Shown here piece by piece: positions 4,189-64,000 of a stretch of DNA of 64,000 nucleotides. The stretch's first letter is position 1, and each line of letters opens with the position of its first letter. The stretch lies in assembly GCA_963422655.1 (NCBI GenBank), contig OY730440.1, positions 472,550-536,549 on the forward strand, read 5' to 3'. The stretch comes from Acidimicrobiales bacterium. Lineage in GTDB: Bacteria; Actinomycetota; Acidimicrobiia; Acidimicrobiales; Aldehydirespiratoraceae. The translations under genes and the position numbers were made by a program. The notes under the pieces are model-generated. The model ran no database searches. It saw only the letters and a program-made list of their open reading frames with translations, and was not told where the DNA came from.

Positions 4189-6876
4189 CTACCCCGCTAC
4201 TGAGGATCCCGAAGGCCGGCCGTGGCACTGCTTGAACTTGCGCCCGTTGCCGCAGGGGCAAGGGGCATTGCGGCCCACCTTCTCCAGTTCGCTCTTGACC
4301 ACGGGGGTCCGGGCCACCTTTTGTCTGGGCGCGGCCGCCGCTCGAGAACCGGGCTCTCTCTTGTCGGCGCTGACCCCTTCCAGCTTCTGCTTGTCACCGG
4401 CCGGCTCATGCCGGGCCACTTGGGCATGCATCACGTGGCGAACGAAGTCCACCGCGATGGCGGTCATCATGGAGCCGAACATCTCGAAACCCTCGCGCTG
4501 CCACTCGGTAGCCGGATTCTTCTGACCCATGGCCCGCAGATGGATGCCCTCCCGCAGCAGATCCATCTCCCAGAGATGCTGGCGCCATTTCTGATCGATG
4601 ATCCACAGCATCACCTGACGCTCGACTTGGCGCATCACGTCGGCACCGATCTCATCGGTACGCCGGGCGTAGTGCTCGTGGCCGGCCTCGGTCAACAGTC
4701 CGGTGAGCTCGTCGATGGTGTCGGCTCGGCCCAGCCCTTCAGCGGTGATGCCACCGGGCCACAATCCTGATATCTCGGTGGCCAAGCCCTCGAGATCCCA
4801 TTCTTCTCGGTATTCGGAGACGCAGTAGGTGCCGATGGCCCCGCCGATGGCATCTTCGATGTACTTCGCCGCTTCGGTCCGCAAGTCGGCACCGTCGAGG
4901 ATCTGGGACCGCCGCTTGTAGATCACCTTGCGCTGCTCGTTCATCACCTCGTCGTATTTGAGGACGTTCTTGCGGGTCTCGGCGTTGCGCTGCTCCACGG
5001 TGTTCTGAGCCCGCTCTATCGCCTTGGTGACCATGCCGGCCTCGATGGGCACATCTTCGGGCAGGGTCTTGTCCATCACCCAGTTCATGGCTCCGGACGC
5101 GAACAGGCGCATCAGTTCGTCCTCCAGCGACAGGTAGAACCGGCTCTCGCCGGGGTCGCCCTGGCGACCCGACCGGCCCCGGAGCTGGTTGTCGATCCTT
5201 CGGCTCTCGTGACGCTCGGTACCCAGCACGTAGAGACCGCCCAGATCCAGCACCCGCTCCCGTTCGGCGTCGGTGGTCTCGGTGTGCTTGCCGGTCAGCT
5301 CGGTCAGTCGGGCCGCGCCCTGTTCACTGGCGGGATCGAGCCCCTCGGCCCGCAGGTCGCGCCGGGCCAGGCCCTCGGGATTGCCGCCCAGCAAGATATC
5401 GACGCCCCGTCCGGCCATGTTGGTGGCCACGGTGATGGCATGGAGACGGCCGGCCTGGGCCACGATCTCGGCTTCGCGATGATGCTGCTTGGCGTTGAGC
5501 ACCTCATGGGACACGCCCGCCTTGTCGAGATAGCGGGACAGCTTCTCGGACTTGTCCACCGACACCGTGCCCACCAGCACGGGCTGGCCCCGCTCGTAGC
5601 GTTCGGCCAGATCGTCGACGCAGGCCTGGAACTTGGCGTCCTCTGTCTTGTAGATGAGGTCGGCTCGGTCGTCGCGGACTGTGGGACGATGGGTGGGCAC
5701 GGGCACCACGTGGAGCCCGTAGGTGGAAACCAGCTCGCTGGCTTCGGTCTCGGCCGTGCCGGTCATGCCGGCCAACCGGTCGTAGAGGCGGTAATAGTTC
5801 TGGAGGGTGATGGTGGCCAGCGTCTGGTTCTCCTCCTTGATGATCACCCCCTCCTTGGCTTCGACGGCTTGGTGGATGCCGTCGGACCATCTCCGGCCCT
5901 CCAGCACCCGACCCGTGAACTCATCGACGATCTTCACCTGGTTCTTGTCGATGATGTAATCACGGTCCCGCTTGTACAACTCTTTGGCCCGCAGCGCGGC
6001 CTGGAGTTGATGCACGAGGTTCTGAGCTACTTGGTCATAGAGATTGTCGATCTTCAAGGACCGCTCCACGGCATGGACCCCGTCCTCCAGAGGAGCAACG
6101 GTCCGTTTCTCCTCATCGACCTCGTAGTGGACGTCACGCCGCAAGCCGCGAGCGATGGAGGCGAACCTGGTGTAGAGGCTGACGGCCTCGGCCACCCGCC
6201 CGCTGATGATCAAAGGGGTGCGGGCTTCGTCGATGAGGATGGAGTCGATCTCGTCGACGATGCAGTAGTGATGGCCCCGCTGGACCTGACTGGCCCTCGA
6301 CATGGCCATGTTGTCTCGCAGGTAGTCGAACCCGAGCTCGTTGTTGGTTCCGTAGGTGACGTCACAGGCGTACTGGGCTCGTTTGTGGTCGGTGCCCGAC
6401 GATCCGCCAACGATCAGCCCCACGCTGAGCCCCAACCACTTGTAGAGCTGCCCCATCCACTCGGCGTCCCGGGCGGCCAGATATCCGTTGACGGTGACCA
6501 CGTGCACACCCTTGCCGCTGAGGCCGCTCAGGTAGATGGGCAGCGTAGAGGTGAGGGTCTTGCCCTCGCCGGTCTTCATTTCGGCCACCCATCCCAGGTG
6601 CAGGGCTGCCCCCCCGACGAGCTGGACGTCGTAGTGGCGTTGGCCCAAGACCCTGAAGGCGGCCTCTCTAACCACCGCGAAGGACTCCGTGAGCAGATCG
6701 TCCAGCTCGGCGCCGTTGGCCAGCCGATTGCGGAGCTCGCCGGTGCGGGCTCGCAACCCGGTATCGTCGAGCCGCTTCATCTCCGGTTCCAGCGCGTTGA
6801 TGTCGGGAACCAGAGCGGTCAGGGCCTTCAGCTTGCGACCCTCACCGGTGCGGAGGATCCGCTTGAACAACGACAT
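4189..6876 (-). CDS. secA: Preprotein translocase ATPase SecA
   Basis: MSLFKRILRTGEGRKLK start, Walker A MKTGEGKTL, DEIDSILIDEARTPLIISG, and the C-terminal zinc motif CPCGNGRKFKQCHG. 895 aa. Confidence 0.97.
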   Translation of the reverse strand: MSLFKRILRTGEGRKLKALTALVPDINALEPEMKRLDDTGLRARTGELRNRLANGAELDDLLTESFAVVREAAFRVLGQRHYDVQLVGGAALHLGWVAEMKTGEGKTLTSTLPIYLSGLSGKGVHVVTVNGYLAARDAEWMGQLYKWLGLSVGLIVGGSSGTDHKRAQYACDVTYGTNNELGFDYLRDNMAMSRASQVQRGHHYCIVDEIDSILIDEARTPLIISGRVAEAVSLYTRFASIARGLRRDVHYEVDEEKRTVAPLEDGVHAVERSLKIDNLYDQVAQNLVHQLQAALRAKELYKRDRDYIIDKNQVKIVDEFTGRVLEGRRWSDGIHQAVEAKEGVIIKEENQTLATITLQNYYRLYDRLAGMTGTAETEASELVSTYGLHVVPVPTHRPTVRDDRADLIYKTEDAKFQACVDDLAERYERGQPVLVGTVSVDKSEKLSRYLDKAGVSHEVLNAKQHHREAEIVAQAGRLHAITVATNMAGRGVDILLGGNPEGLARRDLRAEGLDPASEQGAARLTELTGKHTETTDAERERVLDLGGLYVLGTERHESRRIDNQLRGRSGRQGDPGESRFYLSLEDELMRLFASGAMNWVMDKTLPEDVPIEAGMVTKAIERAQNTVEQRNAETRKNVLKYDEVMNEQRKVIYKRRSQILDGADLRTEAAKYIEDAIGGAIGTYCVSEYREEWDLEGLATEISGLWPGGITAEGLGRADTIDELTGLLTEAGHEHYARRTDEIGADVMRQVERQVMLWIIDQKWRQHLWEMDLLREGIHLRAMGQKNPATEWQREGFEMFGSMMTAIAVDFVRHVMHAQVARHEPAGDKQKLEGVSADKREPGSRAAAAPRQKVARTPVVKSELEKVGRNAPCPCGNGRKFKQCHGRPSGSSVAG

Positions 6877-10851: not shown

Positions 10852-12014
10852 AGGTCCGAACCTACTCCAGCTCGAAAGACCGTGGCGCCCCCCGAGAGCA
10901 CAACCGCCTCGGTATCGGCACCTACCCAGGCCGCCCGGCCACAGTCGAGCCCGAGATCGCCGGCCCGGACCTGCCCGCGGGTGCACAGCACTATGGCCGG
11001 ACCGCCGGTCACGGTGGCCTCGCCGCTGACTTCGATCCGCTGCAACGAGAACTCCGGCGCTGAGGTCCGGTACGAGGTCACGGTGCCGACCGGAGCCGGC
11101 TGCTGCACATCAGGGACGCTGGGATCGGTGGAGACGACGTCGAGGAACGTCGAGATGTCGACAGGCTTGGAAGTCAGCCCGGCTCGGATCACGTTGTCCG
11201 AACTGGCCATCACCTCCACACCCGTTCCTCTCAGGTAGGCGTGGAGGCTGCCGGCGCCGAGGAACAGCGCCTGACCGGGCTGGAGGGTTACGAGGTTGAG
11301 CAGCAACGCCACCACCACCCCGGGATCACCGCGATGATGGGTTTCGAGGTCGGCCACCATGGCTCGCTCGGCGCTCCAGTCACCGGTCGCTCCGGCGCAA
11401 GCCTGCGCCACCGCATGGCTGAGGCCGGCGGTGGCAGCGGTGTCATCGGTGAGCAGCCGGGTGGTCAGATCCCGTAGACCGGCCCCGGTGGGATGGTCGC
11501 TCAGGCGCCGACGCAGCGGATCCAGGGCCGGAGTCTCGATGGTGTCCAGCAGGGCCAGGGTGCTGTTCGGGTCCCGGAATCCGCACAGCATGTCGAAGGG
11601 GGTCAGGGCGCAGATGAGCTCGGGTTTGGGTGACCGGTCCCGGAACGACCGTTGCGGGCTGTGGATGGGAATGCCCAGTGCTTCTTCCCGGGCGAATCCG
11701 GCCCGAGCCGCCTCCGCACAGGGATGGGCCTGTAACGACAGCGGCTGGGCCGCAGCCAGAACCTTGAGCAGGAAAGGTAACGAGCCGAAGCGAGTGGCCA
11801 CCGCCAGCCCGAGGGCGGTTTCTGGGTCGGCGGTGATGAGCTGGTCCAGCCGAACGGCACCGGATCCGGAGCCGACCATCGCCGGCCCCGAGGGATGGGC
11901 TCCGAACCAGAGCTCGGCCCAGGTCCGATCGGAGGCGGCCAGACCGAGCATGGCCGGGATAGCAGTGCGCGACCCCCAGTCGTAGAAGCGCGCCACCCCG
12001 ACCAGTGGTTCCAA
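10848..12014 (-). CDS. manA: Mannose-6-phosphate isomerase, class I
   Basis: YDWGS...AELWFGAHP...[20 protein letters not shown] is the type I PMI signature. 388 aa. Confidence 0.9.
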
Positions 12015-12015
12015 C

Positions 12016-12252
12016 TCAGCTCCCGAACGTAAGGGGGATGTTCTCGTCGGCGGCTTTGTCCATCAGCCGCCGGTGCTCGGAGCCGTCGAGAGTTTCGGCC
12101 TCGTCGCTCAGCATCACCGGTATGTCGTCGTCGATCCGGTACCGCAGCTTCAGCCGCGGGTTGTAGAGAGCGTCTTCGTCCTCGAAGTAGTACAGCGGCC
12201 CCTTGTCGATGGGACAGGCCAAGATCTCCAGGAGACGGGCATCCAGAGTCAT
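12016..12252 (-). CDS. Trm112-family small protein
   Basis: LLEILACPIDKGPLYY...DIPVMLSDEA is the Trm112/UPF0434 pattern. 78 aa, wedged between manB and manA with 1-nt gaps. Confidence 0.8.
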   Translation of the reverse strand: MTLDARLLEILACPIDKGPLYYFEDEDALYNPRLKLRYRIDDDIPVMLSDEAETLDGSEHRRLMDKAADENIPLTFGS

Positions 12253-12253
12253 T

Positions 12254-13636
12254 TCACACCTCTCGGATAGTTCCAGTACGGTCGGTCAGCAGTCGGCGAA
12301 CCTCGTTGACCCGGGCTTCGACCTCGCCGGGGGTGGCGGCCTCGAGGTTGAGACGCAGCCGCGGTTCGGTGTTTGAAGACCGGAGATTGAACCACCATGC
12401 ACCGCAGTCGACGGTGAGGCCGTCGAGCCGATCTGGAGTCACACCCCGGAGGCCGACGAAGTCGCTCGCGACCGCTTCGATGGCAGCAACGGGATCAGCC
12501 ACCTCGAAGTTGATCTCGCCTGAAGATGCGTACCGGTCCAACGACGACACCAACTCGCTCAGAGTGCCGTCGTGTCGGCACAGGGTCTCCAGAACCACCA
12601 AGGCTGCGATCATCCCGCTGTCGGCTCCGAAATTGTCGAGGAAGTAGTAGTGGCCGGAATGCTCGCCCCCGAATACCGCTCCCGTCTCGGCCATCACTTG
12701 CTTGATGAACGAATGACCCACCCGAGCGCGCACGGGCCGGCCCCCAGCGGCGGCAACGGTCTCGGGAACGGCTTTCGAACAGATCAGGTTGTGGATGATC
12801 GTCGCTCCGGGCCGGCGGTCGAGGATGGTGCGGGCCACCAGAGCGGTGATCAGCGATCCCGGCAGCGAACGGCCCGTCTCGTCCACGAAGAAAACCCGAT
12901 CGGCGTCACCGTCGAAAGCGATCCCGATGTCGGCTCCCGTATCGAGCACCCGGGCCACCAGATCCTGCTGGTTCTCGGTCTGGAGAGGATCGGCGGGGTG
13001 GTTGGGGAAGGTACCGTCCAGCTCCGGGTACAGGTGATCCAGCTCGAACGGGAGCTCCTCGAACACGGCCGGGACGATCAGGCCGCCCATGCCGTTGGCG
13101 GAGTCCACCACCACCCGCAGCCGCCTCAGAGCTGTCTCATCGACGAAGCAACGTACGTGAGCCACGTACTCGTCGAGTATGCGGTGCTCGGTTTCGGCAC
13201 CGGGCACCCCGACCGGATCGGGATCGGTCCCGGCCCGGGCCATGGCCTCGATGTCACCCAACCCGGTGTCGCTACCTATGGGCACGGCCCGGGCCAGACA
13301 CATTTTTATGCCGTTGAACGGAGCCGGGTTGTGTGAGGCCGTGAACATGGCTCCGGGCCGGTCGAGCCGGCCCGAGGCGAAATACATCATGTCGGTGGAG
13401 CAGAGCCCGATATCGGCGACGTCGATCCCGTGGGCTAGCACCCCATCGGTGAATGCAGCCACGAGCTCGACCCCGTGAGGGCGCATGTCCCGCCCGATGA
13501 CGACGGCCTCGGACCCCTTCGATCTCACGAACCGGGCGAAGGCCCCACCGATGGCCCGGCATGCGTCGGCGTCGATCTGATCACCGACGATGCCCCGAAT
13601 GTCGTAGGCCTTGAAGATCGCGTCGTAGTCCGCCAT
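12254..13636 (-). CDS. manB: Phosphomannomutase/phosphoglucomutase
   Basis: FKAYDIRG start region, active-site TASHNPAPFNGIK, metal loop FDGDADR, 460 aa. Confidence 0.92.
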   Translation of the reverse strand: MADYDAIFKAYDIRGIVGDQIDADACRAIGGAFARFVRSKGSEAVVIGRDMRPHGVELVAAFTDGVLAHGIDVADIGLCSTDMMYFASGRLDRPGAMFTASHNPAPFNGIKMCLARAVPIGSDTGLGDIEAMARAGTDPDPVGVPGAETEHRILDEYVAHVRCFVDETALRRLRVVVDSANGMGGLIVPAVFEELPFELDHLYPELDGTFPNHPADPLQTENQQDLVARVLDTGADIGIAFDGDADRVFFVDETGRSLPGSLITALVARTILDRRPGATIIHNLICSKAVPETVAAAGGRPVRARVGHSFIKQVMAETGAVFGGEHSGHYYFLDNFGADSGMIAALVVLETLCRHDGTLSELVSSLDRYASSGEINFEVADPVAAIEAVASDFVGLRGVTPDRLDGLTVDCGAWWFNLRSSNTEPRLRLNLEAATPGEVEARVNEVRRLLTDRTGTIREV

Positions 13637-30779: not shown

Positions 30780-31807
30780 CACTGCCCTGCCGAGCTGATC
30801 CCGGCGCCGTCCCTGGGCACTCGGGCCCGGCGCTGGCTGGTTCCGGCCTCGATAGCGATGGCAGGGCCGATGACGGACCCGTCGGTGATCCGAGCCCCGG
30901 CCCCGATCACGGCCCGCGCTCCGATGACGGATGCCTCGACCGCGGCCCCAGCGCCGACGACAGCTTCGGTCTGCACTGCTGCGCCCCGCACGACGGCGCC
31001 GGCCCCGATCGACGCACCGGCCATGACCACGCTGCGTTCCACCACGGCGCCGACACCGACGGTGGCCGTGGCCGCTACCGGTGGTGCAGAGCATCCGAGG
31101 GCGCCGTCGAGGAGATCGAGTTGGGCGGTCAGGTAAGCCTCCGGCGTGCCGATATCGATCCAGTACCCGTCGCCGCCGCAGGACCACAGAGCCCCATCGG
31201 CAACTAGCTCGGGGAACGTCTCGCGTTCGATCGACACCGGGCCGTCAGCAGCGACGCGCTCCAGCACCGAAGGGGCCAAGACGTAGACACCGGCGTTGAC
31301 CTGGTTGGAGGGAGCCTCACCGGCCCCAGGCTTCTCGATGAATGAAACCACCCGGCCGCCGTCATCGGCGACCACTGCGCCGTACCGGGAGGGGTTGTCC
31401 ACACCGACGAGCTGTATGGTCGCTTCGGCCCCGGCCCGGTGGTGGTAGTCCCATAGGGACCTGATGTCGAGATCGGTGAGCACGTCGCCGTTGACGGCCA
31501 CGAAGGTCTCGTCGAACCCGGCCGCAACAGCCGCGAAGCGGATGGCGCCAGCCGTGCCGAGCGGCTCGGGCTCCACCGCGTAGCTGAGCTCTACTCCGGC
31601 GCAGATACCGTCGGGATAGGCGGCCCGGAAGGCCTCGCCCCGGTAGCCCAACGCCAGCACGGCCGCATCGACGCCGTGACGGGCCAAGCCGGCCAAGACG
31701 TGTTCGATCATGGGTCGGTCCACCAGCGGGAGCATCTGCTTGGGTGTGGTCAGTGTCAAAGGTCGGAGCCGAGTCCCGAACCCGCCAGCCAGTACGACCG
31801 CCTTCAT
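30779..31807 (-). CDS. manC: Mannose-1-phosphate guanylyltransferase-type NDP-sugar pyrophosphorylase with C-terminal left-handed beta-helix
   Basis: MKAVVLAGGFGTRLRPLTLTTPKQMLP plus C-terminal hexapeptide-like repeats (GAGAVV.., GARAVIGAGA). 342 aa. Confidence 0.85.
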   Translation of the reverse strand: MKAVVLAGGFGTRLRPLTLTTPKQMLPLVDRPMIEHVLAGLARHGVDAAVLALGYRGEAFRAAYPDGICAGVELSYAVEPEPLGTAGAIRFAAVAAGFDETFVAVNGDVLTDLDIRSLWDYHHRAGAEATIQLVGVDNPSRYGAVVADDGGRVVSFIEKPGAGEAPSNQVNAGVYVLAPSVLERVAADGPVSIERETFPELVADGALWSCGGDGYWIDIGTPEAYLTAQLDLLDGALGCSAPPVAATATVGVGAVVERSVVMAGASIGAGAVVRGAAVQTEAVVGAGAAVEASVIGARAVIGAGARITDGSVIGPAIAIEAGTSQRRARVPRDGAGISSAGQ

Positions 31808-32673
31808 TCCCCCTCGCCCTGGTCATCACCAGAACCCTCGTCATCACCAGAACCCTCGTCATCACCAGAACCCTCGTCATCACCAGAACCCTCATCATCA
31901 CCAGAACCCTCGTCATCACCAGAACCGTCGGGAACGAACTGATCCTCGGGCTGGAGATCCCTCTCGGGTCCTTGCGAGATCAGCCCGAAGGAAGCCTGCC
32001 CGGCAGCCAGCAGCCGGTCTTCGGGCGGTAGCGGTATCTCGGCTCCGGCCGGAACCCGGGCGATCGTGAACGCCTCCCCGCCGCCGAGGAACCTGATGTC
32101 GTCGAAGTCCTGCGAGTACTCCTCGACCTCGCCGGTGTCAGAGTCGAACACCTCGAACCGCGCCACCCGGATGACAGTGGGTTCGCCGTTGCAGTCCGAG
32201 CCGGCCTCGAGCACACCGATACCGGGACCGCTGATCTCGTCCTCGGTTACTTTGACCCCCATCGACTCCAAGAAGACGCCGAGACGGGCGTTGTCCCCGG
32301 CGGCTGAGCTGTTGAACGGGTGGATGTGGATAACGCCGTCTTGGTGGGAATGGATGCCGTGGGGGTCGAACTGGCTGGTGAAGGGGGCCAAGAAGCGGTC
32401 GCAGTCGTAGACCCCGTAAGCCGAGTGCCAGTGATCGTTGCCCACCCGGGGAGCAGTCGGCGCCTCTCGGCTCTGGCGGGCCAGCCCCACCAAGACGATG
32501 CCGAGCACCATCACCAAGCCGACCACCAAGGGGAAGCCCATGGCCCGCCGCTCCTTGGCCCCTCGCGACGAAGCTGCGGCCCGGGCGGCCCGCTGGACTT
32601 TCTTGGACGAGCTAGCCGACGGCGTGCCGCCCGGCTTGGCGGAAGAACCCTTCGATGAACCCGATCTGGCCAC
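31804..32673 (-). CDS. Membrane-anchored His-motif protein with acidic (GSGDDE)n C-terminal tail; function unknown
   Basis: A basic N-terminus is followed by the TM FPLVVGLVMVLGIVLVGL. Then come HWHSAYGVYDCDRF...DPHGIHSHQDGVIHIHPF and a C-terminal DGSGDDEGSGDDE... tail. The stop overlaps the manC ATG (ATGA). Confidence 0.7.
   Translation of the reverse strand: MARSGSSKGSSAKPGGTPSASSSKKVQRAARAAASSRGAKERRAMGFPLVVGLVMVLGIVLVGLARQSREAPTAPRVGNDHWHSAYGVYDCDRFLAPFTSQFDPHGIHSHQDGVIHIHPFNSSAAGDNARLGVFLESMGVKVTEDEISGPGIGVLEAGSDCNGEPTVIRVARFEVFDSDTGEVEEYSQDFDDIRFLGGGEAFTIARVPAGAEIPLPPEDRLLAAGQASFGLISQGPERDLQPEDQFVPDGSGDDEGSGDDEGSGDDEGSGDDEGSGDDEGSGDDQGEGE
31823..31927 (-). repeat. 18-bp tandem repeat, about 5.8 copies (coding, GSGDDE)
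   Basis: The unit tcatcaccagaaccctcg starts at 31823, 31841, 31859, 31877 (1 variant), 31895 and 31913 (partial). Confidence 0.95.
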
Positions 32674-54438: not shown

Positions 54439-55149
54439 ATGCCGGAGAAACAACCTCGCCTTTCGGTGATCATGCCCTGCTACAACGAAGCGGCCACCCT
54501 CGACCGGGCCGTGGGCCGAGTCCTGGCCAGCCCTCACACGTCCGAGCTGATCATCGTCGACGACGGCTCCACCGACGGCACCAGCGAAGTCCTGGCCAGC
54601 ATCGCTCACGAGCGGGTCCGGGTACTGCACCAATCCCCCAACCGAGGCAAAGGAGCTGCGGTCCGCCGAGGCTTCGCCGAAGCCACCGGCGATCTGGTGA
54701 TCATTCAGGACGCCGACTTGGAATACGATCCCGACGACTGGGACCTGATCCTCGAACCGCTGATCCGAGGTAACGCCGACGTGGTGTACGGCTCCCGGTT
54801 CCAATCGGGCCAGCCCCGACGGGTGCTCTACTTCTGGCACTACGTCGGCAACCGGATCCTCACCACTGCCTCGAATATCTTCACCAACCTGAACCTCACC
54901 GATATGGAGACATGCTGCAAGGCCTTCCGGCGCGAGGTGATCCAATCCATCACCCTCACCGAGAACCGCTTCGGGATAGAACCCGAAATCACCGCCAAAG
55001 TGGCCGTCGGCGGATGGCGAATCTGGGAAGTAGGCATCTCCTACTCGGGACGCACCTACGCCGAAGGCAAAAAGATCGGCTGGAAAGACGGCCTGACGGC
55101 GCTGTGGTGCATCCTCAAATACGGGATCAGCACCAGGATCGAGGCCTAG
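54439..55149 (+). CDS. GT2 glycosyltransferase, polyprenyl-phosphate sugar synthase-like (soluble/peripheral)
   Basis: LSVIMPCYNEA, LIIVDDGSTDGT, IQDADLEYDP. 236 aa. Confidence 0.85.
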   Translation: MPEKQPRLSVIMPCYNEAATLDRAVGRVLASPHTSELIIVDDGSTDGTSEVLASIAHERVRVLHQSPNRGKGAAVRRGFAEATGDLVIIQDADLEYDPDDWDLILEPLIRGNADVVYGSRFQSGQPRRVLYFWHYVGNRILTTASNIFTNLNLTDMETCCKAFRREVIQSITLTENRFGIEPEITAKVAVGGWRIWEVGISYSGRTYAEGKKIGWKDGLTALWCILKYGISTRIEA

Positions 55150-55214
55150 TGCCTCTAGAGTGCTCCGAGCGCGGGCGGCCGCCGACCATTTATCGAAACG
55201 CACCCACCTCTTTG

Positions 55215-57245
55215 ATGCCCTCCCACCGATGGCGATTGCCGTCCTACCCGCTGGCCGTGCTGGCCGTGCTCGCCGTGCTGGCCGTGCTGGCCGGCCCGGC
55301 CACCGCCCAAAGCGCCGAGCCGACCCAGGATCCGGAGACTTCCCCGACCGACGATCTCATCTTCACCTTCACGGGAGGAGGCTGGGGTCATGGTGTCGGG
55401 ATGAGCCAGTTCGGCGCCCTGGGACGGGCCGAAGCCGGGTTCGATCACATCGAGATTCTCGAGTTCTACTATGACGGTACCGAGGTGGTCACCGACCCCA
55501 CTTTGGTGGACGACGATATCGACGTGCTGGTATCGATCGACTCCTCGACCACTTTCGAACCGTCCGGACCGGTGACCGTGGCCATAGACGGATACGACAT
55601 CGGCTCGACCCAGAATTCGCTGACCGTCACCCGAGGTGACGGTGGATGGGTGATCTCCGACAGCGACGGGTCATGGTGCAGCGGGTGGTGCCGCGGTTCA
55701 CTGCTCACCGTGAGCTTCACCGAGGGCGAGCCGGTGGCAGTGTCGAGCGGGTACGCCTACGGGTACGGGCAGCTTCAACTCGTACCGGCCGCGAGCGGCG
55801 GACCAAGGTGTGGCACGGACTCGGATCGCTACTGCGTAGTCATCGGCGACATGACCATGCAGCAGTACCTGTACGGGGTGGACGAGATCTATTCGCATTG
55901 GCACCCCGAGGCCTTGGCCGCTCAAGCCATTGTCAGCCGCAGCTACTCGGTGGCCAGGTCGAACCAACGGGCCCACTGGACCAGCCCGTTCGAGCTCTAC
56001 GACTACGGGGACCAGACCTACCGGGGCTGGATGCCCGAAACCACCGACGGTGCACCGGTGGAGTGGATCGGTGCCGTCGACAGCACCGACGGCACCGTCA
56101 TCGTCCATCCCGAGCCAGAGCCCGGCCCCGAAAACACCAGCCCCGAAGGCGACGGGTACGTGATAACCGCATTCTTCTCGTCATCGAATGGGGGCCATAC
56201 GGCATCATCGGAAGAGCCTTGGACTAAACCACTCCCCTACCTGGTGCCCAAACCCGATCCCTACGACGCCGCCCCCGACCCTGACGGGGCGCCGCAGAAT
56301 CCCTTCCGTTCCTGGACCCGCCACTACACCGCCACCGACCTCAGCCGCTGGCTGGCCGATTACCCCCACGCCGATCTCGATGTGGGTCTGATCAGCCAGC
56401 TCACCATCGAGGGGTTAGGCCCCTCGGGCCGGATCGACGATGCCCTGGTCACTCTGACCGGCACGGACCGCACCCTGGAAGTCCGCGATGACGACGGCAA
56501 CCCCTACGGGTATCGGTTTTTCAAGGCCATATTCATCGGCTGTCAAGCCACGCCCGAGTGTTCGGAGATACACACGACCAAGCTCTGGGTCACCACATCG
56601 GGCACCGCACCCCCAGATCCCGACCCCATGGCAACAGCCGCGACGGTGCCGCCGATCCCAAGCTCAGCTCCTGCCTTCACCGATGTGATCGAAGATGCTT
56701 ACTACGCCCAACCCGTGGCCTGGATGGTGGCCAACAACATCACCACCGGCACCACCCCCACCACCTACTCCCCCCGAAAACCCGTCACCCGAGCCCAAAT
56801 AGCCACCTTCCTATGGCGCCTCGCTGGCAGCCCCGATGCCAACCAGCCCGCCACCGCCTTCACCGATGTGATCGAAGATGCTTACTACGCCCAACCCGTG
56901 GCCTGGATGGTGGCCAACAACATCACCACCGGCACCACCCCCACCACCTACTCCCCCCGAAAACCCGTCACCCGAGCCCAAATAGCCACCTTCCTATGGC
57001 GCCTCGCCGCCAGCCCCACCAGCAAAATACCAATCGCCTTCGACGATGTCTCCCCCGACGCCAACTACGCCCAACCTGTGGCCTGGATGGTGGCCAACAA
57101 CATCACCACCGGCACCACCCCCACCACCTACTCCCCCCGAAAACCCGTCACCCGAGCCCAAATAGCCACCTTCCTATGGCGCCTCGCCGCCAACCCCGAC
57201 GCCTTCGCGTCCGGGGCTGAACTACCCCCTTCGATGCGTCTGTAG
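55215..57245 (+). CDS. Secreted SpoIID/LytB-domain protein with three C-terminal SLH-type repeats
   Basis: Signal peptide RLPSYPLAVLAVLAVLAVLAGPATAQS. SpoIID signature FTGGGWGHGVGMSQFGALGRA. Three repeats of FTDV..AYYAQPVAWMVANNITTGTTPTTYSPRKPVTRAQIATFLWRLA match the SLH pattern F-x-DV...W/Y-A...G...F/Y-x-P...TRA-x-hA. Confidence 0.8.
   Translation: MPSHRWRLPSYPLAVLAVLAVLAVLAGPATAQSAEPTQDPETSPTDDLIFTFTGGGWGHGVGMSQFGALGRAEAGFDHIEILEFYYDGTEVVTDPTLVDDDIDVLVSIDSSTTFEPSGPVTVAIDGYDIGSTQNSLTVTRGDGGWVISDSDGSWCSGWCRGSLLTVSFTEGEPVAVSSGYAYGYGQLQLVPAASGGPRCGTDSDRYCVVIGDMTMQQYLYGVDEIYSHWHPEALAAQAIVSRSYSVARSNQRAHWTSPFELYDYGDQTYRGWMPETTDGAPVEWIGAVDSTDGTVIVHPEPEPGPENTSPEGDGYVITAFFSSSNGGHTASSEEPWTKPLPYLVPKPDPYDAAPDPDGAPQNPFRSWTRHYTATDLSRWLADYPHADLDVGLISQLTIEGLGPSGRIDDALVTLTGTDRTLEVRDDDGNPYGYRFFKAIFIGCQATPECSEIHTTKLWVTTSGTAPPDPDPMATAATVPPIPSSAPAFTDVIEDAYYAQPVAWMVANNITTGTTPTTYSPRKPVTRAQIATFLWRLAGSPDANQPATAFTDVIEDAYYAQPVAWMVANNITTGTTPTTYSPRKPVTRAQIATFLWRLAASPTSKIPIAFDDVSPDANYAQPVAWMVANNITTGTTPTTYSPRKPVTRAQIATFLWRLAANPDAFASGAELPPSMRL
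55251..55295 (+). repeat. 9-bp tandem repeat (ctggccgtg) x5 imperfect, encoding (LAV)n in the signal peptide
   Basis: Units lie at 55251, 55260, 55269 (ctcgccgtg), 55278 and 55287 (ctggccggc). Confidence 0.85.
56673..57190 (+). repeat. Three tandem 183/180-bp coding repeats (SLH modules)
   Basis: Copy starts (gccttc) lie at 56673, 56856 and 57036. Copies 1 and 2 are identical over 152 nt (56673-56824 vs 56856-57007). Copy 3 differs at its 5' end and by one c>t in cccaacctgtgg. Confidence 0.95.
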
Positions 57246-58708: not shown

Positions 58709-59452
58709 TCATCGGGTAGAGATGGCGGACATATAGGCGGACGTAACTCGATCCGGTTCGCCCTGCATGCGGATCAACCCCTTGTCCAACCATATGACCC
58801 GCCCGCAGGTGCTGGTGATCTCGGCCATATTGTGGGTGACGAGAACTACCAGACCCGACTCGGCTCGGATCTCGTCTATGCGCTCCCGGCTGCGCTCCTG
58901 AAATTCTTGGTCGCCTACGGCCAGCACTTCGTCGATCAGTAGCACCTCCGGTCTCCACGCGGTGGCGATGGCGAAGCCGAGTCGGGCCCTCATACCCGAC
59001 GAGTAAGTGCGCATGGGCCGGTCGATGGCGTCGCTCAAACCCGAGAAATCGATGATGGCGCCGGTTCGTTCGCTCACTTCGGCCCGGCTGAATCCCAGAG
59101 CCAGTCCCCCGATCATGATGTTGCGTCGACCCGAGAGCGCCGGTCGCAGCGCCGCCGTAACCCCCAGCAGGGTGGGCCGAGAGCGGGCCATGACCCTTCC
59201 CGACTCGAGGGGCAGCAGGCCGGTCATGGCTGCCAGCAGGGTGGACTTGCCCGATCCGTTAGGTCCGATGAGCCCCACCGTCTCACCACTGTGGAAGTCG
59301 TAGGTCACGCCCTGCACTGCCCGCACGGTCCGGTAGCGACGCTGGACCCGACCCCGAGCGAAGAGTCCCTTGAGCCCGACAGACGCGTCCTCATAGACCC
59401 GGTAGAAGACGTGGACGTCCTCGAGGCTCACGATAGCGGAGGAACCGGTCAT
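58709..59452 (-). CDS. wzt: ABC-2 type exporter ATP-binding protein (Wzt/TagH-like), copy 2
   Basis: Walker A GPNGSGKST, signature YSSGMRARLGFAIA, Walker B VLLIDEV. ATGA overlap with the upstream permease. The 119-aa extension in the ORF track is out-of-gene. Confidence 0.9.
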   Translation of the reverse strand: MTGSSAIVSLEDVHVFYRVYEDASVGLKGLFARGRVQRRYRTVRAVQGVTYDFHSGETVGLIGPNGSGKSTLLAAMTGLLPLESGRVMARSRPTLLGVTAALRPALSGRRNIMIGGLALGFSRAEVSERTGAIIDFSGLSDAIDRPMRTYSSGMRARLGFAIATAWRPEVLLIDEVLAVGDQEFQERSRERIDEIRAESGLVVLVTHNMAEITSTCGRVIWLDKGLIRMQGEPDRVTSAYMSAISTR

Positions 59453-60285
59453 CGTCCGAAGAGATGATCGGCGCGCCGGAAGACCACGAATCCAGCCACC
59501 GGCAGTACGACAGCCCAGGCAATGAACCCGGCCAAGACAAAGGCATCGGCCGGGTGGCCCATCAGGCACCATCGGGCGCAGGTGACCAAGTCGTAAACGG
59601 GGTTCAGGGCGAAGGCCCGTCGCCAGGCTGGGCTGGTGACGAACACGTCGACGCTGAAGATGACGCCCGACACGTAAAACAGCAGCCGAAACACGTGGGG
59701 CAACAACTGGTTGAAGTCGCGCACGGCCGCCCCTATGCGAGCGCTGATGAGGGCGGCGCCGACGTTGAACGAGAACTGACCGGCCAGGACCACAACGAAC
59801 AGGACCCATCGCAGTGCCGGACGCTCTCCGGTTGCCAGCAGGGTGATCAGCACCAGCACCAGCGCGGGAACGAACGCCAAAGTCTGCCCGTTGACAGTGG
59901 AGAGTGGTATCAGGATCCGGGGGAACTGCATGGAGCGGATGAGACTGTGGTTTCGAGGGATGGCAACCCCGGCGTCCTGCATCACCCGCTGGGTCAGATG
60001 GAACATGGCCACTCCCACTACCAAGAACCCGAGAAAGTTGTCAACGCCCCGACGCGTATCGAGCACCACGCCGAAGATCAGGAAGTAGACGCCGATCATC
60101 ATGGCCGGGTTGACGAGGTGCCAGAGCTGCCCCAGCACCGTGTCCATGTTCAGGGCCCGAAGGTCCTGAGCCGGCACAACCACGGCGAACTCCCGCCTCC
60201 GCCAGACGTCACGCAGGTAACTGCCGACACTTTGAGGCTCGGAAAGATCTAGGAGGGGGTGCCGATCTTCGACCATACCTCCCAT
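59449..60285 (-). CDS. wzm: ABC-2 type exporter permease (Wzm-like), copy 2
   Basis: LRDVWRRREFAVVVPAQDLRALNMDTVLGQLWHLVNPAMMIGVYFLIFGVVL with six TM segments. GAGGAG lies 11 nt upstream of ATG 60285. Confidence 0.85.
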   Translation of the reverse strand: MGGMVEDRHPLLDLSEPQSVGSYLRDVWRRREFAVVVPAQDLRALNMDTVLGQLWHLVNPAMMIGVYFLIFGVVLDTRRGVDNFLGFLVVGVAMFHLTQRVMQDAGVAIPRNHSLIRSMQFPRILIPLSTVNGQTLAFVPALVLVLITLLATGERPALRWVLFVVVLAGQFSFNVGAALISARIGAAVRDFNQLLPHVFRLLFYVSGVIFSVDVFVTSPAWRRAFALNPVYDLVTCARWCLMGHPADAFVLAGFIAWAVVLPVAGFVVFRRADHLFGR

Positions 60286-60329
60286 TCTAGGGCGTACTCC
60301 TCAGATGAGAGGTTCTGGAGGAGTGTTGG

Positions 60330-60830
60330 GCTCGGTGCCGGACCAGAAATGCTGCTGGGGGTTAGGGTTCGTTCGTGGTTGGGGATGGCGGGTCAGTTTC
60401 TTGGCGTCGAGGTGGATCGGCTGACCAGGGTGTTTGGGTTGGTCACGTCGGATCAGTTGCCGAGTTTGGTGTGTGTATTGTGCTTTCGGCGTATCCGTTG
60501 GGTGCGCCGGGTGGGTTTGTGGTTTTTGCGAGTGTTGTGTGGGTTTGGTTGGTGTTGGTTGTGGGGGTTGTGGTTTGTGGGTTGGTGAGTTGTATGCCGA
60601 ATGGTAGTTTTTGGTTGGTGTTGGGGTTGTGGTCGCCGGGGTGGATTTTGCAGGTGTTGATGGTGATGTGTTTGGTGGTTTGGCCGGGGTGGAATACGAG
60701 TTTGCCGGTGTTGGTGATGTAGCCGGGTGGGTGGGGGTGGATGCCGGGGTGGTCGGTGTGGGCGTGGCCGGCGTCGGGGTGGCTGGCGTCGCGTGGGCAG
60801 GTGTGTGTTGTTGGTAGCCGTTCGGTGGTT
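60330..60830. other. Zone of extreme strand compositional asymmetry (G+T-rich on + strand, C+A-rich on - strand)
   Basis: Hand counts: 60511-60660 is 134/150 G or T (C=7, A=9). 60541-60590 is 49/50 G or T with no C. 60361-60420 is 47/60 G or T. The zone spans both the 3' half of ORF 60443..61039 and the intergenic DNA down to wzm copy 2. Confidence 0.9.
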
Positions 60831-61039
60831 ACGATTCCTATGGCTGAGCAGCCTTGGTCGGGCCATGTGAGCGGATCCGGGTTCTTGTTTTTACAGTTCC
60901 GGGCTGCTAGCCCGGCCGGGTGGGCGGGCGTGGTGGCCCACTCGACGGTGATGGTCGTGTTTTCGGGGACGGGTCTTGATAGTCGGACCGCGAATCGGAT
61001 GGGCGTGCCTCGGGGTTGTTCTTCACCAGTGACCGACAT
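60443..61039 (-). CDS. Calx-beta-like beta-sandwich protein with aberrant Thr/Pro/Asn/His-rich C-terminal half (possibly decayed)
   Basis: RFAVRLSRPVPENTTITVEWATT ... GKLVFHPGQTTKHITINTCKI ... LPFGIQLTNPQ follows the Calx-beta pattern (h-x-V-x-r ... V-x-Y-x-T ... G-x-L-x-F-x-PG-x-t-x-K-x-I-x-I ... F-x-V-x-L-x-NP). The start lies 9 nt after the stop of the repeat-protein ORF. All three minus frames are open here because T and G are scarce, so an open frame alone is weak evidence. Confidence 0.4.
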   Translation of the reverse strand: MSVTGEEQPRGTPIRFAVRLSRPVPENTTITVEWATTPAHPAGLAARNCKNKNPDPLTWPDQGCSAIGIVTTERLPTTHTCPRDASHPDAGHAHTDHPGIHPHPPGYITNTGKLVFHPGQTTKHITINTCKIHPGDHNPNTNQKLPFGIQLTNPQTTTPTTNTNQTHTTLAKTTNPPGAPNGYAESTIHTPNSATDPT

Positions 61040-61048
61040 CCGGATCGT

Positions 61049-64000
61049 TTAGACTGCGGGCGGGCAGAGTTTCTTGTTTTCTGGGTGGGTGTGTTCTCCG
61101 GTGCGTGGAGCGCGGATCGTTGCCCAGACGATTTCTGTTCGTGTCGTGCTGGTGGTAGAGCAGACCGGTTCTAGGTGATGGTGACATCCGGTGTCGGGGC
61201 TGGTGCTGCCGGTTTGGGGGTATTGGTCACGGTGCTGACCTGACGCACAGTTGTGGTGCCACCGGCCCGGGTTGCCGGGTATTTCTTGTTTGGGGAACGT
61301 TTCGGTGTACACGGGCTGCCAGGGCCCGGTGGAGTGCCCGTAAGAGGTGTACTCGTAGGTTCCGTTGCTGCGGGTCGTGTCGTGACCGCCTGGTGGTGTG
61401 CAGTGGGTTCGGGTCAGAGTAACCCGGCACGTCTGAGGGTCCTTGACGACTTTGCCGGTGCTCGGGTCGCATCTCCACCAGTGAACCGTGTGGGTAGCCC
61501 ACGTCTTGTTCAGGTCGATAATTTGCACAGCGGCTGTGATCGTCACGTCGGGCACCGCGCCGCGTAACACCCATCCCTGCCCTGCCGGGTCCGCGACCCC
61601 TGCCAACACCGGGGGAGCCAAATCCGTTCTAACATATTTGGAGTCAGAGTATTTCACCGCGGGCGGGACCGGTCTCTTGTTGTCGTCGAGCACCGTCGCC
61701 GGTCTAGCCGGACACAAGTCCACCCACCTCCCCGCATCACCCACGTCGATTATTTTGGTTGCCGTGTTCCGGTCGTACACCGCATGCCACGGCCCGGTCG
61801 AGTGCCCATAATAGGTGTACTTGTAGGGTCCGCTGATACGGTGCGTGCCGTGACCGCTCCACGGCACGCAATGGGTTCGGGTCAAAGTCACCCGGCACGT
61901 CTGAGGGTCTTCGACGATCTTGCCGGTACCGGGGTCGCATCTCCACCAGTGAACCGTATGAGTAGCCCACGTATTCGCGTCGTTACGAACATAGGTCGTC
62001 ACCTCACGCGTGACCCGGTCTCTAGCACCTCGCAGCTCCCAGCCCGGCCCGGCCGGTTCCGGCGGGGCTCGTAACGGTTCAGAAACCGCCGCCGCGGTCT
62101 CGTCGGGTTTGGTTTCTGCTGGCCGGGCCCGCTCGATTTGGGTGATCTCGGTCGGTGGAGTCACCGAATGGCACTGGTTCACCCACCTGCCCGGGTCGCC
62201 CTCGTCGATTATCTTGGTGGTTGTGTTCCGCTTGTACACCGGATGCCAGGGCCCGGTCGAGTGCCCGTAAGAGGTGTACTCGTAGATTCCGGTGCCGCGG
62301 GTGTCGCCGTGACCGCCCCACGGCACGCAATGGGTTCGGGTCAAAGTCACCCGACACGTCTGAGGGTCTTTGACGATCTTGCCGGTACCGGGGTCGCATC
62401 GCCACCAGTGAACCGTATGAGTAGCCCACGTACTCGTGTCGTTACGAACATAGGTCGTCACCTCACGCGTGACCCGGTTTCTAGCGTTTTGGAGCTCCCA
62501 GCCCGGCCCGGACGGTTTCGGCGGGGCTCGTAACGGTTCAGAAACCGTCGGGGTGGTCTCGTCGGGTTTGGTTTCTGCTGGCCATGCCCGCACGATTTGG
62601 ATGATCCTGGTCGGTGGGGTCACCGAAGCGCACCGGTGCACCCACACGCCCGGGTCGCCTTTGTCGATCGTTTCGGTTGCCGTGGTCCGGTCATACACCG
62701 CATTCCAGGGCCCGGTCGAGTGCCCGTAAGAGGTGTACTCGTAGACTTCGCTGATACGGTGCGTGCCGTGACCACCTGGTGGTGCGCAGTGGGTTCGGGT
62801 CAGAGTAACCCGACACGTCTGAGGGTCCTCGACGATCTTGCCGGTGGCCGGGTCGCATCGCCACCAGTGAACCGTGTGGGTAGCCCACGTCCGGGACAGA
62901 TCCAACCGGATGGTCGTCACCTCACGGGTGATCTGGTTTCTGGCGTTTCGCAGCACCCAGCCCGGCCCGGACGGTTTCGGCGGGGCTCGTAACGGTTCAG
63001 AAACCGTCGGGGTGGTCTCGTCGGGTTTGGTTTCTGCTGGCCATGCCCGCACGATTTGGATGATCTCGGTTGGTGGGGTCACCGAAGCGCACCGGTGCAC
63101 CCACACGCCCGGATCACCCTTGTCGATTATCTTGGTTATCTTGGTTGCCGTGGTCCGGTCATACACCGCATGCCAGGGCCCGGTCGAGTGCCCGTAAGAG
63201 GTGTACTTGTAGGGTCCGCTGATACGGGTAGCGCCGTGACCGCCCGACGGCGCGCAGTGGGTTCGGGTCAGGTCCACCCGGCACGTCTGAGAGTTCACGA
63301 AGACTTTGCCGGTGGCCCGGTCGCATCGCCACCAGTGAACCCTATGAGTGGCCCACGTCCGGGCCAGGTCCAACCGAAATGTCGTCACCTCACGCGTGAC
63401 CCGGTCTCTAGCACCTCGCAGCACCCAGCCCGGCCCGGCCGGTTTCGGCGGCGGCGCCACCCTGGCTGTCACCGCGTCGGCGGTCTCGATTTTCGACGGT
63501 TCCGGTCCCGGCCGGTACGCGACCGTGACATCAGCGGGGATGTCTTTGGTCCGGCACGCTATCCCGACGTCCAAACCGATGTTCGACCACAACGTGTTGA
63601 CATACTTTTTCGGGGCCGCGCCGATCTTTTTGGGGGTTACCACCGTTTCCCAGGTCACCGCCACCCTGAACCGGGCGTCTCTACCAGTCGGGCCCGCGAA
63701 CTTGGCGTACAAGTTGCCGGTGCACGGCTGTATCCACGCCCAGCGCTTGTCCTCGCGGCACGTGTTGCCGCCCGGCCCGCGAACGTAACGGGCCCCGCCC
63801 CCGTAAGCCGCTACCGTCGCAGCGCCGCCCGACCCGCTGATCCACCACCTCAACTCGACAGGGCGGCTAGACACCGAACCGCAAACACCGGCCCTGTCAA
63901 AAGCAACCGGCACCGCCACTTTCGCGGTCAACGACCGGCCCGTGTCGCCTTTCAGCCCGCCCGCCGGCGAAATGCCCGGCCCGAACCGAGAACCCGACCC
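61049..64000 (-). CDS. Large repeat protein (more than 980 aa, N-terminus outside the window): five tandem Cys/Trp/His-rich 153-156-aa modules of unknown family
   Basis: The ORF-track start at 63931 is a TTG. The frame stays open to 64000 (my translation: GSGSRFGPGISPAGGLKGDTGRS-LTAKVAV...). The core TWATHTVHWWRCDPxTGKxVxDPQTCRVTLTRTHCxPxGGH...YEYTSYGHSTGPW occurs five times. TAA stop at 61049-61051. Confidence 0.75.
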   Translation of the reverse strand, partial: GSGSRFGPGISPAGGLKGDTGRSLTAKVAVPVAFDRAGVCGSVSSRPVELRWWISGSGGAATVAAYGGGARYVRGPGGNTCREDKRWAWIQPCTGNLYAKFAGPTGRDARFRVAVTWETVVTPKKIGAAPKKYVNTLWSNIGLDVGIACRTKDIPADVTVAYRPGPEPSKIETADAVTARVAPPPKPAGPGWVLRGARDRVTREVTTFRLDLARTWATHRVHWWRCDRATGKVFVNSQTCRVDLTRTHCAPSGGHGATRISGPYKYTSYGHSTGPWHAVYDRTTATKITKIIDKGDPGVWVHRCASVTPPTEIIQIVRAWPAETKPDETTPTVSEPLRAPPKPSGPGWVLRNARNQITREVTTIRLDLSRTWATHTVHWWRCDPATGKIVEDPQTCRVTLTRTHCAPPGGHGTHRISEVYEYTSYGHSTGPWNAVYDRTTATETIDKGDPGVWVHRCASVTPPTRIIQIVRAWPAETKPDETTPTVSEPLRAPPKPSGPGWELQNARNRVTREVTTYVRNDTSTWATHTVHWWRCDPGTGKIVKDPQTCRVTLTRTHCVPWGGHGDTRGTGIYEYTSYGHSTGPWHPVYKRNTTTKIIDEGDPGRWVNQCHSVTPPTEITQIERARPAETKPDETAAAVSEPLRAPPEPAGPGWELRGARDRVTREVTTYVRNDANTWATHTVHWWRCDPGTGKIVEDPQTCRVTLTRTHCVPWSGHGTHRISGPYKYTYYGHSTGPWHAVYDRNTATKIIDVGDAGRWVDLCPARPATVLDDNKRPVPPAVKYSDSKYVRTDLAPPVLAGVADPAGQGWVLRGAVPDVTITAAVQIIDLNKTWATHTVHWWRCDPSTGKVVKDPQTCRVTLTRTHCTPPGGHDTTRSNGTYEYTSYGHSTGPWQPVYTETFPKQEIPGNPGRWHHNCASGQHRDQYPQTGSTSPDTGCHHHLEPVCSTTSTTRTEIVWATIRAPRTGEHTHPENKKLCPPAV
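61241..63427 (-). repeat. Tandem array of five 459-468-bp coding repeats
   Basis: The unit marker (ccca + g/t + ccc..., encoding PxG(P/Q)GW) occurs at 61570, 62038, 62497, 62956 and 63424, giving periods of 468, 459, 459 and 468 bp. There is a 110-nt perfect match between 62497-62606 and 62956-63065. Confidence 0.9.

Follow-up and report, generated by a model that had tools for sequence, protein, structure and literature searches.

Organization of the Locus

The DNA described here (the window) is a stretch of 64,000 nucleotides (nt) from an Acidimicrobiales bacterium of the Aldehydirespiratoraceae, corresponding to positions 472,550 to 536,549 of contig OY730440.1; all coordinates are those of the window unless stated otherwise. 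Near the end of the window, next to the gene wzm, the + strand carries a tract that is very rich in G and T and represents a real, inherited, and extreme local strand bias. The tract appears to be the antisense of the last ~330 codons, together with ~100 nt of the 3′ spacer, of a giant orphan gene for a putative secreted repeat protein. This gene is encoded on the minus strand, referred to below as the sense strand, and is interrupted in the window by a nonsense codon. In the following list of features, keto bases are G and T, amino bases are A and C, ORF stands for open reading frame, and L002 is a near-identical strain (99% identity in Wzm) used for comparison.

59449–60285, minus strand: wzm (ABC-2 permease), a conserved backbone gene that abuts the island containing the giant gene; ordinary composition
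60286–60442, minus strand: spacer of 157 nt between the stop codon of the giant gene and the start of wzm; the first ~100 nt past the stop are C/A-rich on the sense strand
60443–61039, minus strand: 198-residue ORF (P0001), the putative in-frame, degenerate Calx-beta-like C-terminal domain of the giant gene
60464–60817, minus strand: core of 118 consecutive codons with C or A in the third position, of which 76 are pure C/A codons
60471–60759, no strand assigned: block of 289 nt that is identical between strains (comparison with L002)
60532–60587, plus strand: longest pure G/T run, 56 nt; the sense strand encodes ...TNPQTTTPTTNTNQTHTT...
61049–61051, minus strand: TAA nonsense codon that splits the gene; GAA, with readthrough, in L002
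61052–61400, minus strand: moderately skewed end of the 960-residue ORF; keto fraction at third positions 0.18–0.32
61135–63454, minus strand: five tandem repeats of 459–468 bp encoding 155-residue Cys/Trp modules; keto fraction at third positions ~0.5 (normal)
61049–63931, minus strand: 960-residue ORF, the portion of the giant gene inside the window; its true start lies past the window end
63700–64000, minus strand: start of a mirror-image domain in which the sense strand turns G/T-rich; keto fraction at third positions 0.66

The 198-residue ORF shares its frame with the 960-residue repeat ORF, and a single TAA (61049–61051) stands between them. Because L002 has GAA in this place and one continuous ORF of 1745 residues, which terminates at the shared stop codon, 155 nt ahead of wzm, the gene in the window is read as a split allele with a start beyond the window, and the annotated 198-residue P0001 as the tail of a broken gene. 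The giant protein is predicted to comprise a signal or transmembrane segment, runs of Thr and Pro, the five tandem 155-residue Cys/Trp modules, and the C-terminal part. The repeat copies are 65–88% identical to the reference copy, with invariant Trp, Cys, His, and Gly positions and motifs such as TWATHxVHWWRCD, QTCRVxLTRTHC, and YGHSTGPW. Pfam returned no family for the 198-residue ORF, the repeat modules, the N terminus of the giant protein, or the lipoprotein whose gene neighbors it in L002. The named homologues of Wzm, from Acidimicrobiaceae and Candidatus Poriferisodalis, have 64–68% identity, pointing to an Acidimicrobiia host. The wzt ORF that follows wzm (58709–59809, minus strand) was called mechanically as 366 residues, as compared with 247 residues in L002, where it starts at the end of wzm; the long additional N-terminal stretch of the listed window ORF, which runs into wzm, is probably spurious.

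Extent and Strength of the Skew

Between 60511 and 60660 the + strand contains 70 G, 64 T, 9 A, and 7 C (134/150 G+T, ~6.8 standard deviations above the window mean). There is no C at all at 60541–60590 (27 G, 22 T, and 1 A), 47 of the 60 bases at 60361–60420 are G or T, and 60330–60830 is 80.0% G+T. The base counts given in an earlier, sequence-only reading of this DNA are all reproduced exactly by these figures. When the keto fraction is computed in 150-nt windows over the 64 kb, its mean is 0.483 with a standard deviation of 0.061 and it peaks at 0.90 at 60509; the tract is the sole locus above 0.70, at 60290–60908 and 61055–61234. Extremes in the opposite direction reach keto fractions of 0.25–0.30 at most, and the + strand of the window is 48.3% keto overall. 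Only three pure G/T runs of 20 nt or more occur in the window, of 56 nt (60532–60587), 27 nt (60607–60633), and 20 nt (60509–60528), and the number of pure-keto 56-mers expected per 64 kb is 1 × 10⁻¹³.

A GC skew above 0.24 together with an AT skew below −0.4 spans ~60300 to 61400, with a maximum at 60500–60700, where the GC skew of the + strand rises to 0.76 in 200-nt windows. The sequence-only reading had given the tract a length of ~500 bp, which is too narrow; its statement that the skew passes the stop codon at 60443 into non-coding DNA is borne out by 60286–60442, with 70.7% G+T on the + strand, but most of the tract is minus-strand coding sequence. At 61049–61400 the + strand is 67.9% G+T. 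The neighboring wzm, which had been described as unlike the tract, is indeed ordinary, with 44.7% G+T on the + strand. The GC content in the tract is 0.54–0.56 versus ~0.63–0.66 locally, so that the 70% GC assumed earlier as the starting composition is too high.

A sequencing or assembly artifact was rejected as the source of the skew because two independent assemblies concur and the codon-position logic described below is perfect. The suggestion that the + strand could form G-quadruplexes was also not upheld: no four runs of at least three G with loops of 1–7 nt were found above position 59000 on either strand, and two-tetrad, G2-type motifs number 8 in the tract and 163 window-wide. Since no stop codon can be formed without A (+ strand) or T (sense strand), almost every one of the six frames is free of stops across the tract. 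Spurious Gly/Val/Trp-rich ORFs of 109, 115, 68, and 103 residues are found on the + strand at 60259–61052, and frame 2 of the sense strand gives a PT-rich reading over the tract.

Bias at Codon Positions and Synonymous Sites

Codon usage was compared with a background set of 35 other long ORFs of the window, crudely called, that contain 15,623 codons. The third positions of the last 100 codons of the gene are C.64, A.31, G.03, and T.02, whereas those of the background are C.45, G.35, T.12, and A.08. At the 4-fold degenerate sites of these 100 codons, the A:G ratio is 18:3 versus 844:3571 in the background (p = 1 × 10⁻¹⁰); the corresponding ratio for two-fold NNR codons is 11:0 versus 348:1025 (p = 3 × 10⁻⁷), and NNY codons have a C:T ratio of 31:1. 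The codons CAA, AAA, ACA, CCA, CTA, and ATA are preferred over the usual G-ending ones. From 60817 down to 60464, 118 consecutive codons, designated the core, have zero G or T in the third position (P = 3 × 10⁻³³ against the background and 2 × 10⁻²¹ against the rate in the adjacent 63 codons). The stretch can be lengthened to 133 codons, as far as 60862, with a single exception, CGG at 60820. Keto third positions occur in 21 of the 63 codons upstream and return in the last five codons of the gene; over the last 1 kb, the keto fraction at third positions declines from 0.5 through 0.32 and ~0.2 to 0.

The core retains 52 G or T residues, all of them non-synonymous: 21 G and 5 T in the first position and 12 G and 14 T in the second. 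The keto content is therefore 0% at position 3, ~22% (26/118) at position 1, and 22% (26/118) at position 2. The codons that hold these residual bases specify Gly, Ile, Asp, Ala, Leu, Phe, Tyr, Cys, Val, Ser, and Glu. The skew is a bias of nucleotides on which selection on the protein has acted as a filter, and the codon pattern also establishes which frame is read. At 4-fold sites, A makes up 25/72 (0.35). Full conversion of third-position G to A and T to C predicts 0.45 (p = 0.10), and plain exclusion of G and T predicts 0.166, which is rejected (p = 2 × 10⁻⁴); a change of sense G to A and T to C thus fits the 4-fold sites better than simple G/T exclusion does.

These sites bear directly on a cause at the level of the protein, namely a low-complexity or linker tail rich in Pro, Thr, Asn, and His, perhaps expanded by slippage, that happens to use C/A-rich codons. 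The residues P, T, H, N, Q, and K account for 64% of the core, as compared with 26% of the set of Calx-beta matches and 20% of the window proteome; the stretch TNPQTTTPTTNTNQTHTT is cryptically simple, and short weak arrays are present at 60532–60561, 60722–60761, and 60745–60791. However, synonymous choices are biased as strongly as amino acid choices, the non-repetitive part that contains Calx-beta motifs (GYITNTGKLVFHPGQTTKHITIN...FGIQLTNP) is equally free of G and T at position 3, the skew goes on into non-coding DNA, and the Thr/Pro linkers of the neighboring lipoprotein gene use ACG, ACT, and CCG codons. A protein-level cause is already largely refuted by the synonymous-site tests and is considered very unlikely. 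The earlier claim that protein-level selection alone is insufficient agrees with the bias at synonymous sites and with the ~100 nt of skew past the stop. The same reading had offered an ancestral PT-linker-like region as an alternative, and the share of P/T/H/N/Q/K residues does match that description, but it is a consequence of the pure C/A codons and not their cause.

Slippage or tandem-repeat DNA was rejected as a separate candidate, since it would rest on three weak arrays of 30–47 bp and the Calx-beta motif part is non-repetitive. The tract has no tandem-repeat origin and no paralogous copy; a second copy was absent from the window and from segments 1–1560 and 3000–5000 of L002.

The Calx-beta-like C-terminal Domain

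The skewed part of the gene appears from its sequence to encode a degenerate Calx-beta-like C-terminal domain. An exhaustive phmmer search with this part gave 32 weak matches besides the ORF of the query itself, the best with E = 6.5 × 10⁻¹², and all eight of the matches inspected were multi-Calx-beta proteins. In BLASTP, three Calx-beta motif blocks were aligned in the correct order, FxVRLSRPxxxxxTVxWAT, YxxxxGxLxFxPGxTxKxIxI, and xFGxxLxNP, with an insertion of ~65 residues. The domain resembles Calx-beta (PF03160) in these ordered blocks and in its relatives. It differs in the insertion, in falling below the Pfam threshold (no match of the 198-residue ORF to the profile at E ≤ 0.1), and in the acidic Ca-binding positions, which are replaced by Q, N, H, or K. 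A word-indexed homologue search with the 198-residue ORF returned the self match alone, and a protein search with the C-terminal 381 residues from L002 returned zero matches. The single-sequence AlphaFold2 model of the domain has a pLDDT of 35.

The Island and Its Mirror-image Segments

In four relatives with 70–71% identity in Wzm, the gene immediately upstream of wzm is a divergent Wzy_C gene and there is no giant gene; for this reason the giant gene is placed in an insertion, the island. Conservation on the wzm-wzt side extends to all four relatives. Beyond wzm-wzt, glycosyltransferase, Bac_transf, and SpoIID/SLH genes are found in three of the four, the exception being a relative designated L003, which is without transferase genes there. 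In L002 the island includes an IS481-family transposase (1898–2878 in L002 coordinates, minus strand), an orphan lipoprotein gene that has Thr-rich linkers and is present twice (32–1135 and 3455–4543), and a truncated duplicate of the start of the giant gene (1201–1545).

Much of this DNA is skewed in the mirror-image sense. From ~450 to 6300, the + strand of L002, which is the sense strand there, is G/T-rich, with a GC skew up to +0.53, an AT skew down to −0.53, and a GC content down to 0.49. The third positions of the lipoprotein C-domain are G.53, T.35, C.09, and A.03; its 4-fold sites comprise 57 G, 36 T, 5 C, and 2 A, and its NNY codons have a C:T ratio of 11:29. The third positions of the first 130 codons of the giant gene include G.47 and T.36, and intergenic stretches of the island are keto-rich as well. 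The beginning of this domain is seen in the window at 63700–64000, where the + strand has a GC skew of −0.22 to −0.29 and an AT skew of +0.13 to +0.36. The giant gene accordingly has a 5′ part with G/T in third positions, a normal middle formed by the repeat array, and a 3′ part with C/A in third positions; on the top strand of L002, keto bases prevail left of the repeat array and amino bases right of it. From these mirror segments it follows that the asymmetry is a property of the DNA strands of the island, with opposite signs on the two sides of the tandem-repeat array. The two lipoprotein copies are ~98% identical in their skewed domain and their differences are of mixed spectrum, so that the skew predates the duplication.

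Several candidates for the origin of this arrangement were rejected. An RIP-like (repeat-induced point mutation-like) action on the duplicated lipoprotein genes is contradicted by their ~98% identity, the mixed spectrum of their differences, and a skew older than the duplication. The tract as an inverted copy of the mirror segments was discarded, as compositional micro-matches alone were seen. A chromosomal replication terminus acting as the polarity switch does not agree with the backbone on the wzm side, which is without strong or consistent skew and has the opposite weak sign (the + strand of the window being 48.3% keto overall). For a diversity-generating retroelement there is no partner of the template repeat/variable repeat type in the window or in the L002 segments compared, no reverse transcriptase among the called genes ~10 kb to either side, and the tract is strain-invariant.

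The composition may, on the other hand, have been brought in with the island, or with its ends, from a replicon of extreme strand bias, such as an element whose replication or transfer involves long-lived single strands, and have remained unameliorated. The insertion in place of the Wzy_C arrangement of the four relatives, the IS481 transposase, and the segmental duplication are consistent with such an origin, as are the island proteins, all orphans without Pfam families, and a skew that is older than both the duplication and the strain split. However, the middle of the same gene is host-like at third positions, so that a single gene would have to be a mosaic of three parts. Genes for replication, transfer, or phage functions were not seen in about 10 kb, no viral or metagenomic relatives appeared in the scans described below, and frozen synonymous sites favor a force that is still acting. 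An inherited composition is accordingly regarded as distinctly unlikely.

Age and Inheritance of the Bias

The assembly of L002 is independent and has the same tract composition. Over 1.5 kb of alignment with the window, the flanks are 3.8–6.3% different and the 289 nt at 60471–60759 are identical. From 60865 down to 60466 the strains have no synonymous difference and four non-synonymous ones. The spacer (60286–60442) contains six differences, all of them transitions, and in five of the six the window has the keto base on the sense strand. Downstream of the TAA (60286–61048), the window genome has the sense-strand keto base at 15 of 17 keto/amino differences (binomial p = 0.002), a count of 17 unpolarized sites that assumes no recombination; upstream of the TAA the keto split is 11:17 (Fisher p = 0.0017 for downstream versus upstream). 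The 15/17 split may mean either that the nonsense lineage is losing the bias or that the intact lineage alone is still gaining it.

The species is represented by two assemblies alone. Relatives were absent from two JGI metagenome scans, one with an alignment of the repeat modules and one with the lipoprotein C-domain, and from two viral scans, and a scan of genome contigs with Wzm gave one irrelevant match of 28% identity.

The sequence-only reading had proposed that most C on the + strand became T, as in a cytosine-deamination footprint. In its simplest form this would be a single enzymatic hypermutation of the + strand by a cytosine deaminase of the APOBEC, AID, DddA, or RIP-like kind, and the strand-coordinated, transition-type change, the local drop in GC, and the polarity switch are as in clusters around resected breaks. 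However, C to T on the + strand alone predicts ~17% A and ~40% GC, and 6% A and 54% GC are observed, so that A to G on the + strand is also required; third-position T has correspondingly gone from.12 to.02, and A on the + strand from ~17% to 6%. All surviving sense G and T are non-synonymous, indicating that selection had time to filter, and the composition is common to a strain that is 4–6% divergent in the flanks. The lipoprotein duplicates have a mixed and not a C/T-only spectrum, and polarization from the repeats yields many transversions. The neighbors of the residual C on the + strand are set by Gly and Pro codons, and no deaminase context is readable from them. A single hypermutation is likewise considered very unlikely. 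What stands of the proposed footprint is its strand specificity and transition-like character; C to T alone does not stand, and a discrete deamination event is contradicted by the composition shared with L002 and by the non-synonymous nature of the surviving G and T. Because L002 shares the composition and + strand A to G is needed as well, the bias, as judged from these comparisons, is old and inherited and is not a recent burst of C-to-T change.

Properties of the Sense Transcript

The sense RNA of the tract is unusually devoid of structure. At 60501–60650 it is 48% C and 6% G, with a minimum free energy of −2.4 kcal/mol per 150 nt as compared with −57 ± 12 for the background, and across the tract it has 48–53% C, 6–14% G, and minimum free energies of −2.4 to −19 kcal per 150 nt. 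Selection on the RNA would be an alternative to a mutational bias: the sense transcript would be kept G/U-free and unfoldable, as a Rho-loading (rut) or polarity-control site before wzm and wzt, or as a platform of single-stranded RNA. The tract lies directly upstream of this co-directional operon, and its RNA has the physical properties of a rut site, being unstructured, C-rich, G-poor, and at least 70–80 nt in length (PMC6407284). The frozen silent sites (0 synonymous differences in 133 codons and a 289-nt identical core) resemble the result of purifying selection, and at 15 of 17 sites the keto allele is that of the strain with the premature stop, as relaxed constraint would predict.

Several features do not agree with this explanation. 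Rho acts on RNA that is free of ribosomes, and the intact allele leaves just ~100 nt of the tract untranslated (~700 nt in this genome, as a result of the TAA). A rut site needs ~80 nt and not 350–1000 nt, and depletion of U is not one of its requirements. RNA selection also leaves the mirror-image segments with a G/T-rich sense strand unexplained, and the C:A ratio at 4-fold sites rejects a simple selection to exclude G and U (p = 2 × 10⁻⁴). Selection on the RNA is on balance unlikely, though it is the main rival of a mutational bias. Searches of Rfam and for sigma-70-like promoters and intrinsic terminators produced nothing above chance.

A Proposed Strand-specific Transition Pressure

The explanation that we favor, tentatively and with rather less than even confidence, is a long-standing, strand-specific mutation pressure of the transition type combined with purifying selection. 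On the sense strand this pressure would have replaced G by A and T by C, equivalent to C to T and A to G, or amino to keto, on the + strand. The direction is that expected when DNA that is repeatedly single-stranded has its C and A deaminated (C to U and A to hypoxanthine). In vertebrate mitochondrial DNA (mtDNA), deamination of C and A on exposed single strands gives a G+T-rich strand, the H strand, and sense third positions poor in G (PMC3269012). In the tract the pressure would have saturated all synonymous sites. G and T would have been retained, through purifying selection on the Calx-beta-like domain, for Gly, hydrophobic, and a few acidic residues, and the rest of the domain would have drifted toward P, T, H, N, Q, and K, the six residues that can be encoded by C and A alone.

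Three ways of exposing a strand are candidates: 3′ tails formed where breaks within the repeat array are resected; transcription that is convergent or antisense, with R-loops and displaced non-template strands; and inward strand-displacement synthesis. The polarity layout of the island fits all three. That the driver is mutational rather than selective is our inference, and so is the nature of the strand-exposing agent. A bolder form of the explanation, which we consider unlikely, is a self-sustaining hypermutation of the island whose polarity flips across the repeat array and which reshapes surface proteins. Processes that may underlie it are a deamination of persistent single-stranded DNA linked to R-loops or resection, or a targeted editing that depends on expression.

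A number of observations weigh against strand-specific transition pressure. Additive mutation alone leaves reverse changes, and the strains have 0 synonymous differences in 133 codons versus ~10 expected from the flanks; silent sites frozen to this extent need a bias above roughly 100-fold, or else selection or a recent recombination tract. The keto excess at 15 of 17 sites suggests a driver that depends on expression of the region, unlike a pure DNA-level process. When the last internal repeat is compared with its four paralogues there is just a modest excess in the proposed direction (G to A 15 versus A to G 8, and T to C 7 versus C to T 4), together with the transversions mentioned above. 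The T fraction of 0.39 at 4-fold sites of the mirror segment fits neither of the simple models. The family is known from two genomes and there is no outgroup, so that no substitution in the core is polarized. The promoter search revealed no promoter-like site from which an antisense transcript could start, and no strand-exposure mechanism was observed.

Other Skewed Regions

The second most skewed region of the window is at 56673–57197 (+ strand), the 3′ end of the SpoIID/SLH gene at 54912–57245, which contains three SLH-domain repeats of ~180 bp that are 91–99% identical. The sense strand is 25–30% keto in these repeats, and the third positions are C.67, A.15, G.12, and T.06, a milder sense C/A bias in another surface-protein gene. 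In L003 (71% identity in Wzm), positions 12001–12300 contain the 3′ end of a DUF222/HNH endonuclease gene (minus strand) with a C-rich sense strand that encodes a Pro-rich tail. The + strand there has a GC skew of 0.44 and an AT skew of −0.56, and the skew is far milder than that of the focal tract. Among the few remaining compositional outliers of the window is an array of about eight tandem 18-nt units over 144 nt at 31799–31942 (CCCTCGTCATCACCAGAA on the + strand; six overlapping 54-nt register copies). It sits in the minus-strand ORF 31804–32673, and a reading of the reverse complement by eye, unchecked by a translation tool, gives a repeated SGDDEG.

Implications

Strand-asymmetric substitution is familiar at the scale of replicons, as for leading and lagging strands and the H strand of mtDNA, and more weakly for transcription units. 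The bias found here is stronger than that of mtDNA, is contained within a few hundred bases of a bacterial gene, and is mirrored with the opposite sign a few kb away. It saturates the silent sites, rewrites two-thirds of a protein domain into six amino acids, and is stably inherited. The literature consulted comprised reviews of genome-scale skews and of eukaryotic clustered mutation, in which no local tract of this type in a bacterial chromosome is described.

If the driver is mutational, the island contains a strong local determinant of the mutation spectrum of a bacterium and would be a natural system for the study of single-strand exposure, R-loops, and break repair. If it is selective, the tract would be an unusually clean example in which each silent site is under selection to keep the RNA unstructured and free of G and U. 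If the island does hypermutate, it would be a prokaryotic and local counterpart of the directional mutation of immunoglobulin switch regions or of the mtDNA type. For annotation, the lesson is that tracts of this kind yield long spurious ORFs in six frames, misannotation (such as the 198-residue "gene"), and failed homology searches.

Comparison with Known Systems

The keto skew associated with transcription and replication in bacteria is likewise a strand-specific keto excess attributed to deamination of single strands, and the mirror segments (the lipoprotein gene and the 5′ end of the giant gene) have its usual sign, with a G/T-rich sense strand. The focal tract has the sign opposite to the usual effect of transcription, its sense strand being C/A-rich, and it is local and switches within one gene. 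The GC skew of 0.76 is, in our judgment, several-fold above typical genome-wide skews of bacteria. Strand-coordinated mutation clusters on resected single-stranded DNA and deaminase hypermutation (kataegis, retroviral G-to-A hypermutation, and fungal RIP) resemble the tract in their runs of same-strand transitions with a polarity that reverses about a central point, a place taken in the island by the tandem-repeat array. They are single events that affect all codon positions in a dinucleotide context, whereas the tract is ancient, saturated, and filtered by selection and involves A to G.

Similarity to rut sites lies in the C-rich, G-poor, and unstructured RNA upstream of a co-directional gene. 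The tract is, however, 4–10 times longer than needed, mostly translated, and depleted in U. In vertebrate mtDNA, as in the tract, C to T and A to G occur on one strand, are strongest at synonymous sites, and are graded, and the sense third positions are nearly G-free (PMC3269012). The tract differs in being ~1 kb long, with mirror patches, in an island of a bacterial chromosome and not a whole replicon. It is also more extreme, T being lost as well (0/118 keto at position 3), and no strand-displacement replication is known or visible. The tract is best filed as an unusually strong and local variant of strand-asymmetric substitution bias, acting on a Calx-beta-like tail.

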